From the NCBI GenBank assembly GCA_050506795.1, contig JBJHCF010000033.1, positions 1 through 58,177 on the forward strand: DNA of 58,177 bases. The letters run 5' to 3'. Position 1 is the first letter of the stretch. Every line of letters starts with the position of its first letter. Source of the stretch: Opitutia bacterium (GTDB lineage: Bacteria > Verrucomicrobiota > Verrucomicrobiia > Opitutales > T3Sed10-336). Below, piece after piece: positions 45,101 to 57,100 of this stretch. Position numbers: made by a program.

Positions 45101-48100
45101 TGCCAGTTCGTGCCATTCCGCTCAAAGATAAAAGCTCGCCCGGGATGGGTGCTCCAGGGAAGCGGAGAGTGAGGCGCGCCAACGACGATCGTATCGCCGT
45201 CGATATCCACGGCCTGGCCGAAATGATCCCTTTCCACCACGATGCTGGGAACCAGTCGCTGCCGGCCCCATTGATCTCCATCTCGTTCGAACACGTAAGC
45301 GGCCCCGGCATACGTTTTCCCTGCAGTTTGTTCCCAGGGAGCCCCGACCACTATAGTATCACCGCTGATCGCCAGACTGGATCCGAACAGGTCGTAGGGG
45401 CCGTGGGGTTGGGATGGATTATACTGTGCCTCCCCGGTCAGGGTCGCCTGCAGCTTCCACTCCTCGCCGGGGTCCGGCGACTGCGGACCGACCGCCTTAC
45501 CGAATCCCGGATTTCCATTCAGCGTCCACCCCTGCATGACCGGATCGGGCGCCACGGCGGGATCTCCGGCTGTCCCCGCATTGTAGGCGGCAAGCACCTC
45601 TCCGGCAGAGGTCTCGAAGAGCACCGTATGGACATTCAGGCTGCCCTCACCCGAATATACATCCGATCCCCAGACGATACCCTCATAGAATGCACCCCCC
45701 AACTCCAGGAGGTCGCCGGACCATGTATGGACCTCATTTCCGTTGAAACGGTAGGTGACCTCTTCCGAATCGGGATCGAAGCTCATCTCGTGGGTGTGGT
45801 AATCCGTCGCGCCAATTCTGCCTGTCGTGAGGACATACGATTCGGGAGAGGCGCCCGGCAGGGTCGCCAACAGGTCCCCGTCATAATTGATGTCCAGAAA
45901 AACCGCGTAACGTTTTACTCCGTCGTCATAGCGAAACACCATCGCCGGTGACAGCGACATCGTCGCGGGGCGATAAACGAAGCGTGCGACCAGTTGGTAA
46001 CGCCAGCCATACGTCCGCGCGTCCAAGTGCTCTTGTTCTGTGATATCGACGGAGTAGTTGATCCCGTTCCAGTAGTCGCCCACGTCGGTCACGTTCCACG
46101 CATTGCGGCCGGGAGCGCCGTTGCGCTCAAAGACGTAGGCCGCACCTTTATTCATATTGATATAACCGGGTCTAACGCTGAGTCGCCCTCCCAGCACCAG
46201 GGTGTCGCCTTCGAAGGCAACGGTCAAAGGGGTGTTCAAGTCCGAAGAATGCGATGGAGGTGTGAGCGTTCCCTGATAACGCCATCCGTGCTCGGTTCGG
46301 CGGAACAGGTCGGCCCGGTTCGTGGCTGTAGCCACGGCCGTATCGCCCCAAAGGGCAACGTGACCGGGATACCAATCGGTTCCTGTCGGCATTGAATTGG
46401 GCAACGGCTGCGCGATGCCAGCTTCAAAAAGCTCGGCGGGAAAGGGCAGTTCGACCCCGCCGGCCGGCGAAAGGACCGTGCCGAGGAGGAGTGCGGCGAG
46501 GGTGCCGGGGATGAACGAAAATGCTTTCATGACGCAGGATTCTTTACCGGTGAAGAGGATGAATCGGCGGTGCGCTTAAGGTATGGTGTTGAGCTCAACT
46601 TCCCGTTCGGAAGGCGGCGGCGGCACCCGTTGCATCAGGAACGTCCCCGTGTTCGTGGTGGTTAGGTGAGGATGGCCGGAATAGGTCGTGACGAAGGTGG
46701 CGTCGCCAGCGATGAAGTGTTCTCCCACCTCGTGACCGTCTTCTCCCTGAACGGCGGCAAGCGAGAGGGACAGCAAGGCGGGGAGGTCCAGCAGGGTGGA
46801 GTCCGCCGGCAGCGGAATCCCGCCCATGGCGGCCGCGAAAGCGGTGGCGGTATCGATTGTGATCGTGGCGGGAAATGGCCCCTCGGGGAAAAAGTGAGAC
46901 GAACCGCCCACCAGGTGCCCGTTCGTGACGGATCCCGCGCGGATGATTTCCAGCGAGAACGGAAGAGCGGTCCGGCCGGTGGAAAAGGTGCCCTCCCAGC
47001 GGGCGTCCCGGTCCTCAATGGTGATCACCACCTGCGAGCTCAGTCCGGGCCGCGCGCCCGAATCGGCTTCCAGGGTCAGGATGAGAACCCGGTGCGGGTC
47101 GATCGTCTCGTTCTCGGCCAACGTGATCGGAAGGGTCGCCGTGGTGCTGTTGAAGACCTCGATTTGACCGGTCAACGTCCCGTAATCGTACGGTGTCGCT
47201 GTGCCGCTGATCGTGTAACGGAGCGTGCCGGTAAACGGAGCGCTGAAGGTGATGGTCGGTGAGACCGTTTCGCCCTCGGAGATGTGAAAGGCGGTGGTGG
47301 CGAACTCGGCGACGACGTCGCCGGAGGGGCCGATCCCTACGACACGGTAAAACCCTCGTGGACCGGTCGGGTGAGCAATGACCACCCGGTGTTCGCCCTG
47401 ACCCAGGGGAATGATCACCGCGCTGGTGTCATGGGCCCAGGGAGCCGTAACCCCAAGGTCCGGAGAGTATTGGACGAAGTAAACAGTCGCCCCGGTTCCA
47501 CGGTCGCGAAAAGTAAATTCGATCGGGCCGTCCGGAACGATCCGGATGGTTTCGACGCGGAACTCGGGAGTGGATTGTGCGGACAATCCGGGGATTGCCG
47601 ATGCAATGACGACGCCCAGGCCGAGGGCCAGAGCCTTTAAAAAGCGCGTTCGCGCAGCAGGTCGGCTGGAGTGAATTGGGGTGTTGATCGAAATACGGGG
47701 CACAAAAAGGAATTCACGAGACCGCAGACACCGTACGGATCGATCATTCATAAAGTTTTTCCCTTCGGGAATACTAATCCATAGTGCATGCGTTTCTCGA
47801 GGATTTAATTGTTGGTCAGGTTACATAGCATGATATCTCCGTCTTCTGATTAGAGCCTATTATGAAGCGAGACGAATATGTTTTCGCCATGAGCAATTTA
47901 CAATTATGCCACCGGTGGCTCCAACTCTTGCCGGAGTTTCGGAATCCATTGGATTCGGAACAGTCTTCCGCCGCAGCCCGACTTATCCCCTCCCGCCTTT
48001 TTGGAGCTTGGAATCACCCATGTCGTAGCAGGATCAGACCGGTGGTTCCGATCAACGCGATGAGGCATCCGAGATAGTAGGTCCAACCCGGGCGGGCCTT

Positions 48101-54100: not shown

Positions 54101-57100
54101 GGGATTGCCATCGGTGATGGCCCGGACCAGGCCTTCATAGGCGCCCGCCCGGATGGCATCCTCAATGCTCTCCGGATCGATCAGGCCGCAGTTTCTCAGG
54201 ACAATGCGGACCTGGCGGTCGTTTTCGTCGCAGAGCAGATCCTTCACCACTTTGCCCTTCCCGATGGAATCTTCCACGATGCGGGCGATGTCGCGACTGA
54301 GAACATGGGTGTAGGTGACTTTGGAAGGCAACAACTGCACGACCATTCCCTTGTCATAAAGGCCCATATCGAGAGCCCGAACGACCTGCACTTTGTCCTC
54401 CCAGCCCCGGCTGCGGAGTTCATCCACGATCGAAGACTGAAAAAAACGGGTTTTGTCGCCGTCTTCCTGGGACGTGTCCAAAACCAGAATCGCCTCCGGG
54501 GGCCGGTCGAAAGAAGTTCCCCTGGAGCGGCTCGCAACGATGTGGTCCTCCAAAAGCCGGTTTTTTTGAATGTGCTCTTTGACAATGCGCGCGGCCAGTT
54601 CTTCATCCACCTGCCCGTAGAGTGTTGCCGGCTGTTCGTCCCCGCCCACTTCCACCAGGGGATCAATAAAAGCGTATCCATAGGATCCGGTTCGCTCAAC
54701 GGGAATGTTCAATCCGGCTTCGCCGCATGCTTTGCGTAGCACCTCAATCAGCGATTCCGCCCCGGCGGCGATTCCTCCCGAATCGAGTCCCACCCGAATC
54801 CATTGCGGCGAAACGGGCTTGGATTCAGCGCCTGATTTCAGAAATGCCAGCGTCTCTTCGAAGGATTTAGTTTTCATTGGTTTGCTCGCTCGCTAGAATG
54901 TCATCCACGATTTTCTCGATTTTCTCGGGAATCATCTTGCCCAGGGTGTTTTTATCAATGACCAGGGCAGGCGACATCCCGCAGCAGCCGATACAACGAA
55001 CAGTTTCGAGGTGGAACATGCGGTCTTCCGAGGTCTCCCCGTCCTTTATCTTCAGTTTTTGCTCAAAGGTGCTGAGGAGACGTGCCGCTCCCTTCAAATA
55101 GCAGGCGGTGCCATTGCACACCGTAACATTGTGTTTTCCCTGCGGAACCAGGCGGAAGTAATGATAGAAGGTTATAACCTCGTAAATGCGTGCCATGGGG
55201 ACCCCGGTTTTCTCCGCCAAAAGCAAACTGGCTTCGCGAGGGACATACCCATGCTGGTTCTGGATTTCGTGGAGAATCATTATAAGATTGCCCTCTTTGT
55301 CCCTCCACCGGTCCACGCATTCATCAATGCCTCTCCGGACCTCCGGTTCGATTTCCATTAACTCAGGGGATGATGTTGCATTCATGGATAATGTCCTTGG
55401 TTCGCTTGGATAATAGGGGTTTGCCTGATTTAGGGATCTTCTTTTTTTGTGAAATTATAACCAACCCTTGCTTTTTCTTATGCAAAAGCCAGTGTTTGCA
55501 GACTCCTCACGGTCGCGACCAACCTGTGGGCGGGGAAATCTTTCGGTGCGTTTCGATCACATGAACGCTGTTGAGTTGGGGGCCGGTTCATGAAAATCAA
55601 ATGGAAGGGAAAGGAATGGCTGAACCACTGAAAAACCAATACGGTCGCGAGGTGCCGTCCTTGATTGCAGACATGGTTGCGTCGGTTTTTCCGGCGTTTC
55701 GGCGTCGAGCTTTTCTGCGCGAGGTGTTGCGGGACTACGAAACGTTGGAGTTGTTGGAGCGGGGAAGATTGTGCGGCATGCCTTGCGTTCGCTGGTGAAG
55801 CAGGGAGATCCCGGCGCGTTGGCGGTGCTGGGCTTCGGCGCCAGGCCGGCGTTAGAGGTTCGCAACGTCCGGATTCTCCCGCGCAGCGTGCAGGAGGGCG
55901 ATTCGGTGACCTTGTCGTTCGATCTTGTCGGCACGGGTCCCCGGCTCCAGCGCATCGTGGCGGATTTTCGGGTTCATTACGTGAAAGCCAACGGCTCCGC
56001 ACACCCGAAGGTGTTCAAACTCAAGTCACCGGAGTTGAGACCGGGTGAGACGATTTCTCTCTCGTTGAGGGCTTCGGTGCGACCGGAATCCTTGGTTCTT
56101 TTCCTGGAGGGCCATGCTCCGGCATGGCCGGGGCGGGCAAGATGCCCGCGGTCCCGGGACATTAATCGCAGTTCACGCAGGTGGCCACCCACATGCTGAT
56201 CTGCCCCTGATCGCCGCCTTCGTCGTTTTCACCGGCGAAACCCAGTCCGAGGATGAGCACTCGTCCGCCTTCCTGAACGAAGCCGGTAAAAAAGGCTTGG
56301 TCGCCGGGATCGGTGATGGAACTCATATCGAAATTCAAGCGTCCGTCCGCGGCCACCGAGTAGCTGAGCGGGATTTCGTCGGGATCTTCCGTTTCCACGA
56401 TGACGCCTCCCTGTTCGCTGTCGTAGAAGGGAAGAAAGACGATCAGATCTTCGAGTGTCAGGGTGGCTTCGCCATTCTGATCGAAGATCAGGCCACCCGC
56501 GATTCCTTCCGGTCCGGAGGGAAGCATTTCGAAATCCCACCGCGAGACCCAGAAGCTCTGACCCTCCAGTCGGTATTCCTTGCCGGCGAGATCGGGATTC
56601 AGATCACGGCGCACTCCAAGAAACAACTGGTGCGCGGCGAAGCCGTCGCCGGCGCCTTCCGGGACCTCTCCGATGCGGGCCTGGTGGATTTCCGGCCAGC
56701 CTTCGGCCAGGACCAGGAAATCGCCCGCCGGCGACATAAAGCCCGCCAGGTTCTGGGAGTCCTGTCCCGGGCGGCCGAATCCCTCGATCGAGACCAGCAC
56801 CTCCCCTTCCGGGCTCACGTGGATGGGGAAGCTGAAATCGATTTCGGTCGGCTCGAAATAGCGGCGTACCGGGTCGCTTCCGTCGAAAAAGTGAATCATT
56901 TCGGTTTCGATTTCGGTGCCCTGGACCGAAAACGTGCCCCCGTCGACGTCGCTGATCGTCACCGGGGCGCTGAGCACGGTGTACAGGTTTTCCTCGGTAT
57001 CGCTCTCGATCTCCAGGCGCACGATGCCCCAGTCGCCGATGAGGTCCGCGATCCCGGCATCGACTGATTTTCGGGCCATGAAGGCCTGCACGAATTCGAC

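Follow-up and report, generated by a model that had tools for sequence, protein, structure and literature searches.

The locus studied here offers two concrete candidate proteins for the activation of [FeFe]-hydrogenases in organisms that lack HydE, HydF, and HydG. The window, i.e., the whole analysed stretch of 58,177 nucleotides (contig JBJHCF010000033.1, Opitutia bacterium, GCA_050506795.1), stems from a genome that is 97.8% complete in 82 contigs. As proposed in a first-pass annotation, it carries an operon of five co-oriented minus-strand genes, in the order hydC-hydB-hydA-TonB receptor-EamA:

54867..55385, minus strand: hydC, 172 aa, NuoE-like [2Fe-2S] subunit (PF01257; dN/dS 0.10 vs. 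homologue L011)
52904..54877, minus strand: hydB, 657 aa, FMN/NADH subunit (PF01512, PF10589, SLBB; dN/dS 0.115)
51118..52884, minus strand: hydA, 588 aa, predicted group A [FeFe]-hydrogenase catalytic subunit (NF040763, TIGR02512; dN/dS 0.034)
48932..50989, minus strand: TonB-dependent outer-membrane receptor of the PqqU/YncD-related clade TBDR1 (PF00593; dN/dS 0.20)
48014..48925, minus strand: EamA/DMT inner-membrane transporter of a hydrogenase-linked clade (PF00892; dN/dS 0.13)

The dN/dS values reveal purifying selection on all five genes, and the intergenic gaps amount to –10 bp (hydC/hydB), 19 bp (hydB/hydA), 128 bp (hydA/receptor), and 6 bp (receptor/EamA). Since the L011 homologue has a Lys at the second Met of hydC, the start of this gene was corrected from 55358 to 55385. 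For the receptor, the GTG at 50989 is the probable start, with the open frame extending to 51109. Promoter and terminator scans of the locus yielded matches at chance level. Control by Rex was rejected: a near-consensus box lies upstream of hydC, but comparison of 64 upstream rows showed no conservation of it, and no Rex domain is encoded in the genome. The single RNA run found shared 6% of words and was kept as contigs, mostly of less than 95% identity.

The catalytic subunit appears complete. All three H-cluster motifs noted earlier (i.e., TSCCPAW, MPCTAKKYE, and EVMACPGGCIGGGG) are present in HydA, and its P1, P2, and P3 motifs, proton-transfer Cys, and Lys and Met pocket residues are in place. 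The motifs agree with the CpI and HydABC structures, and those of the H-cluster pocket are conserved across the 70 group-A-type rows listed. Moreover, HydA exceeds the cut-offs of both NCBIfam models, for group A and for A6, scoring 515 vs. 406 bits with TIGR02512 and 797 vs. 765 bits with NF040763. By its sequence, HydA would be a group A [FeFe]-hydrogenase, and its holo-enzyme would be expected to act on H2.

The label "bifurcating", given to the complex in the first-pass annotation, was not confirmed. HydB carries the B1 [4Fe-4S] site, but its C-terminal B3/B4/B5 domain and its Fer4 domain are absent: the last B1 Cys is followed by a 46-residue Cys-free tail, and the alignment to solved homologues ends near residue 635. 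The N-terminus consists of two cysteine-depleted thioredoxin-like domains, in which Gly and Tyr align with the thioredoxin-domain cysteines of the solved homologues. Since the B3/B4 [4Fe-4S] clusters and B5 in the HydB C-terminus are described as required in electron-bifurcating HydABC (PMC11406978), the enzyme is probably NADH-only and non-bifurcating. In lacking B3, B4, and B5 it resembles Syntrophomonas wolfei Hyd1ABC and sub-type II BfuABC, described as non-bifurcating and NADH-dependent (PMC7311640, PMC11406978). Unlike these, HydB has also lost the cysteines of its N-terminal thioredoxin domains, and it keeps the bifurcating-type residues Ala/Met 232/234, Phe 367, and GGPSG. Specifically, the Losey motif residues (A/E232, M234, F367, and GGPSG) lie in GDPGAFMDR, GAGAFVCGEE, and GGPSGG, where the numbering follows from the motifs and not from a printed alignment with T. 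maritima HydB.

The maturases themselves are missing. No HydE, HydF, or HydG was detected above cut-off in this genome, with Bacteroides and Thermotoga as positive controls, and the weak matches were ThiH, BioB-like proteins, or generic GTPases matching in the GTPase domain only. ThiH, the best radical-SAM match in the genome, was rejected as a disguised HydG, as it exceeds the ThiH cut-off, measures 387 aa, and adjoins ThiS. In an Opitutales order sample (n=251), with thresholds placed above the paralogues (HydG 1e-75, HydF 1e-35, HydE 1e-25), the HydA domain was found in 51 genomes and HydG and HydF in three each. The earlier claim that hydrogenase-bearing Opitutales lack maturases thus holds for 48 of the 51 and fails for G039, G088, and G237, which belong to one genus of ~1 Mb genomes and carry HydG and HydF with a group-B HydA. 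Among the genomes with the transporter genes (hereafter, the module), HydE was found in 0/28 (control G298 positive), HydG and HydF in 0/23 from Opitutales, and HydG over cut-off and the HydF dimer domain in 0/5 of Akkermansiaceae type. Another 25 genomes have a maturase-free HydA but no module: 24 small Opitutales of at most 1.4 Mb (5 with group A, 19 with group-B-like HydA), and G355, of 2.2 Mb and 99% complete, with the same HydABC type as here.

The part of the module that is constant is the EamA clade rather than the TBDR1 receptor. This protein with two EamA domains (PF00892, two stretches) belongs to a clade present in 23 of 51 HydA-positive vs. 0 of 200 HydA-negative Opitutales genomes. 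Above 2.5 Mb, 23 of 24 HydA-positive Opitutales genomes carry it, the exception (G096) having a fragmented hydA, and one genome (G132) has the EamA and neither receptor clade. The clade comprises 27 rows and has a support of 98, and every one of these rows comes from a HydA-positive maturase-free genome; a misframed split-EamA row from G140, whose gene has the neighbours of the paralogue, was left out of this reading. The ESM Atlas returned generic EamA and TonB clusters only.

Module and maturases exclude each other: HydE, HydG, or HydF occur in 0/28 module genomes, and the module in 0/7 maturase-bearing relatives (G039, G088, G237, G262, G298, G308, and G399, all with HydA and HydF), which have no member of the EamA clade, TBDR1, or a second receptor clade, TBDR2. 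The clearest case is G298, which shares the truncated HydB type and has a HydA that is 73% identical to the one here and nests within the clade of module-bearing HydAs. Downstream (3′) of its hydA lie TM1266, hydE, hydG, an aspA-like lyase gene, and hydF, i.e., the maturase genes occupy the place that the transporters take here. The canonical HydE/HydF/HydG operon beside the group A hydrogenases of G298 and G308 thus has the same HydABC and the same position after hydA, whereas in our locus all maturase genes are missing and a TonB receptor and EamA stand in their place. HydABC complexes of three different types are flanked by the module, which thus follows the H-domain rather than the redox partner; genomes in which it lies apart from hydA nonetheless encode HydA. 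These counts come from draft module genomes, profiles built from HydA-adjacent members (with which receptor genes were located), and quick or FastTree trees, and they overstate significance because kin are not independent.

The linkage of the receptor to the hydrogenase, claimed earlier, was borne out, as the TBDR1 clade (support 100) adjoins HydA or EamA in 8/8 GTDB and 42/47 metagenome loci, many of the latter being redundant strains. For two clade members (L058 and L062), the visible sequence contains neither HydA nor EamA, and in L062 it extends over more than 7 kb on both sides. With a plug, a 22-strand barrel, and TonB encoded in the genome, the protein qualifies as a TonB-dependent transporter. 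The nearest fold to its predicted model (pLDDT 89.8) is that of PqqU (9c4o; TM 0.83, 20% identity). This E. coli PQQ importer, also known as YncD (PDB 9c4o, 6v81; PMC12124388), is the nearest solved sequence as well, and offers a precedent for cofactor scavenging. Nevertheless, PQQ was rejected as the TBDR1 substrate: the receptor scores 59 bits against the PqqU model NF041535 (cut-off 1200), and PqqU Y99 aligns to an invariant Pro in a SAP motif with the aromatic residue absent. At PqqU R304 and R365 the aligned columns vary, and a conserved Arg lies two residues away from R365. What we propose for TBDR1 has the pairing of an apo-enzyme with cofactor scavenging in common with PqqU, but TBDR1 is partnered by EamA in the inner membrane and by a hydrogenase in the cytoplasm.

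The receptor slot is filled by the PqqU-like TBDR1 in 11 genomes and by the OprC-like TBDR2 in another 11. Both receptors have no meaningful similarity to each other (the best BLAST piece spans 78 residues) and are mutually exclusive: TBDR2 was found in 0/15 tested TBDR1 genomes and is absent from this genome, and no TBDR1 clade member occurs in TBDR2 genomes. Two unrelated receptors have converged on one slot. The nearest TBDR2 relative is the copper receptor OprC (PDB 6fok series; full-length profile match, E ~1e-47), from which it differs in being linked to hydA and EamA. Copper was rejected as its substrate, since TBDR2 scores 117 and 143 bits against the OprC model TIGR01778 (cut-off 472) and has Ser and Thr at OprC plug positions 143 and 147, presumably the copper-binding Cys and Met. 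Instead, a plug motif SPTRT or variants thereof is present in 8/8 aligned members. Going by their source names, two TBDR2 proteins seem to stem from cultured strains, P0383 from Puniceicoccales bacterium CK1056 and P0405 from Synoicihabitans lomoniglobus.

Missing maturases next to a dedicated import pair suggest that the finished cofactor is taken from neighbouring microbes. Of the readings considered, uptake in place of synthesis, as first put forward for this locus, fits best, and it has gained support from the mutual exclusion, the positional swap, the second receptor, and the persistence of the unlinked module; the module-less maturase-free HydAs count against it. On balance, we lean slightly towards the receptor and EamA mediating uptake of a ready-made cofactor across two membranes, most likely the assembled [2Fe] subsite. 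Maturase-bearing anaerobes of the same community would release the [2Fe] cofactor, and the TonB-energised receptor would draw the scarce anion, [Fe2(adt)(CO)4(CN)2]2- or a carrier-bound form, into the periplasm. EamA would carry it on to the cytoplasm, although well-studied EamA proteins are mostly exporters. The housekeeping Fe-S machinery would make the [4Fe-4S] half of the H-cluster, and apo-HydA would accept the [2Fe] subsite without HydF. Where H2 pressure is low, matured HydABC could then reoxidise NADH and form H2, a reaction in which ferredoxin probably takes no part. To our knowledge, the finished [2Fe] subsite is the sole precursor that activates HydA without maturases.

Maturase-free H-cluster assembly is reported to work in vitro and in vivo (PMC7450098), and earlier intermediates are described as requiring HydE and HydF (PMC12501116). 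In Synechocystis, HydA was activated from an added synthetic [2Fe]adt complex whose entry route is given as not known (PMC6243476); maturase-free cells there use an external complex, as proposed here, albeit in a laboratory procedure for which the relevant sections describe no natural transporter or donor. As to the physiology of cultured relatives, the main text of the Verruconatronum paper gives no hydrogenase data and the supplement matches listed include no [FeFe] entry, and searching for Opitutus terrae together with FeFe yielded a single, unrelated paper.

Alternatively, a maturase-independent pathway of unknown nature might be encoded elsewhere in the genome, with the module importing a building block such as a simpler Fe-CO/CN species, a dithiol, or a sulfur compound. 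Active [FeFe]-hydrogenases without hydEFG are described in archaea, Giardia, and Entamoeba by Greening et al., who favour such a pathway (PMC11216029), and the 25 module-less maturase-free genomes would also fit, three of five tested having no TonB receptor at all. The enzyme is intact in those archaeal and eukaryotic cases as well, but the sections concerned name no candidate route, whereas in our case the loss goes together with a specific transporter pair. We consider this pathway unlikely, as no enzyme gene is conserved around ~95 compared loci, in which the commonest neighbour family past HydABC, EamA, and the two receptors occurs in 8 and is unrelated, and a motif scan of this genome listed 13 radical-SAM proteins with no second HydE/G-like one among them. 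HypD, the other CO/CN-iron route, occurs in only 6/28 module genomes, for which reason borrowing of CO/CN iron from Hyp proteins was rejected too. That the maturases are merely unassembled, or too divergent for detection, is barely credible: every module genome is a draft and the order-wide thresholds were set above the paralogues, yet all three are missing from 28 separate drafts, the same models are positive in seven related genomes and the controls, and the weak matches in this genome have other identities.

It is fairly improbable that the module supplies an iron-rich enzyme with plain iron or some other metal and has no part in H-cluster acquisition. TBDR2 derives from a copper receptor and outgroup relatives of TBDR1 adjoin Fur, PepSY, and CusF genes at loci without HydA, but maturase-bearing relatives with an equal or greater iron need lack the module in 7/7 cases, the TBDR2 plug has Ser/Thr at the OprC 143/147 positions, EamA is an unusual partner for iron, and the missing maturases would stay unexplained. 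Quite improbable, too, is that HydA serves as an Fe-S redox protein without a [2Fe] subsite, the module importing its substrate or a different ligand. The loss of several HydB clusters marks the complex as derived, and a Hox-type [NiFe] hydrogenase cluster with HypD in this genome means that H2 could be made another way. The truncated HydB is, however, shared with maturase-bearing G298, whose HydA, like CpI, has identical CN-binding, proton-transfer, and diiron-pocket motifs, and 22/28 module genomes have no HypD.

Beyond the locus itself, the mutual exclusion with HydEFG, the positional swap, the second unrelated receptor, and the persistence of the module when unlinked are new here. There is about an even chance that these free-living Verrucomicrobia are natural H-cluster auxotrophs that scavenge [2Fe] via a dedicated TonB receptor and EamA, two unrelated families having each supplied a receptor. 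If so, an iron-carbonyl-cyanide cofactor would be traded between microbes, and the [2Fe] complex would join cobalamin and PQQ as a cofactor shared within the community. Some maturase-free hydrogenases elsewhere would be explained as well; in archaea, the full HydE/HydF/HydG set is reported for only 5/130 hydrogenase-bearing genomes (PMC11216029). Furthermore, the transporters could enable hydrogenase activation in engineered cells by low-dose synthetic cofactor, and genome-based H2 predictions would need to allow for cofactor dependence.

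The hydrogenase and transport genes of the window lie in a single operon:

55385 to 48014, minus strand: hydC, hydB, hydA, TonB-dependent receptor and EamA transporter genes, tightly packed

As the first-pass annotation had stated, the H-cluster motifs of the window HydA were intact, with all three found; its family scores exceeded the cut-offs for group A and A6. Purifying selection acts on all five operon genes, with dN/dS values of 0.10 (hydC), 0.115 (hydB), 0.034 (hydA), 0.20 (receptor), and 0.13 (EamA) by Nei-Gojobori count against the close homologous locus L011. The reported lack of hydE, hydF, and hydG was upheld as well, since no HydG, HydF, or HydE model scored over cut-off in the genome holding the window (G000; 97.8% complete) and the Bacteroides and Thermotoga controls passed. 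The top radical-SAM match in this genome was ThiH, adjoining ThiS, and its HydF-model matches were restricted to the GTPase domain. On the same strand and 3′ of the operon, a 1544-aa (41896-46530) and a 391-aa protein (46576-47751) are encoded, both with signal-peptide-like N-termini and the larger with what we take to be repeated FG-GAP-like motifs; neither was conserved beside other loci. Window positions 38204-41810 presumably encode a TPR-like protein of 696 aa that bears a LuxR-type HTH at its C-terminus, a DNA repair protein resembling Ada, and a third protein resembling YciI.

The initial description of the enzyme as bifurcating was not confirmed. HydB retains the motif residues tied to bifurcating enzymes by Losey et al. 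(in the accessible part of PMC7311640). Because it ends 46 cysteine-free residues after the B1 cluster, it is missing the B3, B4, and B5 clusters, which bifurcation is said to require (accessible text of PMC11406978). Moreover, the cysteines of the thioredoxin-like N-terminal domain in solved homologues align with Gly and Tyr in the window HydB, and the truncation is common to the main clade of related loci. Judged by these sequence features, the window enzyme is probably not bifurcating, and an NADH-only enzyme would be the better inference. The same genome also carries a [NiFe]-hydrogenase cluster and HypD (C1:177040-182357 and C1:69745-70785), so H2 assays must separate the [NiFe] from the [FeFe] enzyme. 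From gene order and motifs, we take this cluster to be Hox-type.

The EamA transporter, which together with one of two receptors forms a module, is the constant partner. A profile built from 22 HydA-adjacent EamA proteins matched in 32 of 251 evenly drawn Opitutales genomes, 51 of which carry the HydA C-terminal domain (24 genomes >2.5 Mb and 27 genomes ≤1.4 Mb). The hydrogenase-linked EamA clade split from a widespread paralogue with a support of 99 (quick IQ-TREE) or 98 (FastTree, 27 rows). It was present in 23/51 HydA-positive vs. 0/200 HydA-negative genomes, counts that include kin, are not independent, and were given no p-value weight. The nine HydA-negative genomes with an EamA match were assigned to the paralogue group: the tree placed eight of them, and gene neighbours the ninth, G140. 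This placement mostly left out second EamA copies in HydA-positive genomes. Among the large HydA-positive genomes, 23 of 24 carried the clade, the exception being G096. The hydA of this module-free genome is in pieces (L263:1082-1702), a sign of decay.

Two unrelated receptors occupy one slot beside this transporter. The window receptor belongs to a PqqU/YncD-related clade (TBDR1; support 100). Other genomes pair an EamA of this clade with a receptor from an OprC-like family that has SPTRT in its plug (TBDR2), the similarity between TBDR1 and TBDR2 being limited to one 78-residue C-terminal piece. The 23 Opitutales with the EamA clade comprise 11 with TBDR1, 11 with TBDR2, and one (G132) with neither. 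TBDR2 searches revealed no member in the 15 TBDR1 genomes searched and G000 (best 195 bits vs. at least 600 for members). A further TBDR2 search covered 41 handles, and the eight HydA-negative genomes among them had no member either. In G120, TBDR2 is split across two frames (L278:6490-8366), a sign of decay. The proposed tie between receptor and hydrogenase largely stood, with TBDR1 members adjoining HydA or EamA in 8/8 GTDB loci and 42/47 metagenome loci (many from near-identical strains); three of the five misses were fragments, but two (L058 and L062) were real exceptions. Weaker TBDR1 relatives (240-364 bits) neighboured Fur, PepSY, CusF, or NnrS genes, with HydA absent. The nearest solved structure to TBDR1 is PqqU, an identity that was rejected at Y99 of the PQQ signature published in PMC12124388 (accessible part).

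Module and maturases were mutually exclusive. HydE occurred in 0/28 module genomes, all unclosed assemblies (control G298 positive), and HydG and the HydF dimer domain in 0/5 genomes behind loci L014-L018. A class sample (n = 201) yielded HydA in nine and HydF in four genomes, and neither these four nor the three maturase-bearing Opitutales held an EamA, TBDR1, or TBDR2 clade member. The clearest control was G298, with the same truncated HydB and a HydA that is 73% identical to that of the window and nested among module-bearing HydAs, where hydA is directly followed by TM1266, hydE, hydG, an aspartate-lyase-like gene, and hydF; G308 is arranged likewise.

The module tracks the H-domain, accompanying the truncated-HydB enzyme of the window type, a type whose HydB carries a fused GltD-like domain (L143, L145, L147, and L149), and the full two-ferredoxin type (L049, L057, and L132). 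Where it lay away from hydA (L014, L016, G004, G049, and G092), HydA was still present in each genome. The fusion of HydB with a GltD-like FAD/NAD(P) domain (L143:5299-8421; also L145, L147, L149, and L238) measures ~1040-1100 aa, and these loci have a TSCSPGW-type HydA and no maturases. Both L132:9359-18157 and L057:2-8644 contain two differing hydCBA sets in tandem (i.e., truncated-HydB and full two-ferredoxin type), followed by one shared receptor and EamA. Genes that we take to be transposase-like (L014:8931-9461 and L126:756-1796) lie directly upstream of receptor-EamA pairs detached from hydA. Upstream of hydC, the closely related L029, L033, L037, and L040 have a palindrome of 18 bp (AATTCGTGCGCACGAATT; L037 differs at one position) that is a possible operator.

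The claim that no HydA-bearing Opitutales has maturases applied to most genomes, but not to G039, G088, and G237, which form one genus of ~1 Mb with group-B HydA. At thresholds placed above ThiH and generic GTPases (1e-75 for HydG, 1e-35 for HydF), HydG and HydF were each found in 3/251 genomes. In G039 (L233-L234; roughly 1 Mb), hydG-hydF-hydE and group-B HydA are kept; sister families with small genomes retain a HydA resembling group B and lack maturases. Since 24 small Opitutales genomes (five with group A HydA, 19 scoring like group B, with differing motifs in the rows inspected) and G355 (2.2 Mb, 99% complete; same HydABC type as the window) have neither maturases nor module, the module is not the sole way to retain a maturase-free hydrogenase. 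Three of five such genomes tested had no TonB receptor whatever. Stand-alone HydA without HydB and HydC was seen at L231:7759-9510 and L232:8135-9934, in ~0.85 Mb genomes in which no maturases, module, or TonB receptor were found. In G355, an outgroup relative of TBDR1 adjoins a sulfate permease-like gene (L267:634-2766); it may provide a third route or have no connection with the hydrogenase.

In the accepted pathway (accessible part of PMC12501116), the HydG product, an Fe(cys)(CN)(CO)2 synthon, passes to HydE and then to HydF with glycine-cleavage components; a cell without these three cannot finish early intermediates. An assembled [2Fe] complex goes into HydA maturase-free, in vitro as well as in vivo (PMC7450098, in part), and it enters whole Synechocystis cells through a route described as unknown (PMC6243476, in part). 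A high-affinity outer-membrane receptor with an inner-membrane carrier would match the needs of scarce-anion scavenging for a cytoplasmic enzyme, and TonB is present in G000. We slightly favour import of the finished or carrier-bound [2Fe] subsite by the module. The cofactor uptake proposed earlier in place of synthesis gains from the exclusion of maturases, the positional swap in G298, and the two unrelated receptors found in one slot, but is weakened by the module-free, maturase-free genomes.

Import of a building block for a separate, uncharacterised cofactor pathway is rather doubtful, as no conserved biosynthetic genes were found near the loci and only 6/28 module genomes have HypD. Generic metal supply by the module appears distinctly unlikely, and a non-hydrogenase role for a HydA with intact motifs very unlikely. 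With the maturase controls positive, maturases that are present but missed are hardly credible.

Maturase-free hydrogenases are known: according to the accessible part of PMC11216029, a full maturase set occurs in 5/130 archaeal genomes, Giardia and Entamoeba lack one, and an as yet unknown alternative pathway is proposed. TonB receptors are known to scavenge the cofactors PQQ (PMC12124388, in part) and cobalamin; the module would work like PqqU-type scavenging, yet TBDR1 is not PqqU. No publication tying a transporter to [FeFe]-hydrogenase maturation was found in a search covering subscription journals and supplements thinly, the accessible parts of PMC9431212 and PMC8924675 contain nothing decisive on this question, and the module is apparently previously undescribed. 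It is real and conserved; free-living Opitutales and some Akkermansiaceae have it in place of hydEFG. Through the module and its putative substrate, the maturase-free hydrogenase problem becomes a direct binding and complementation test.
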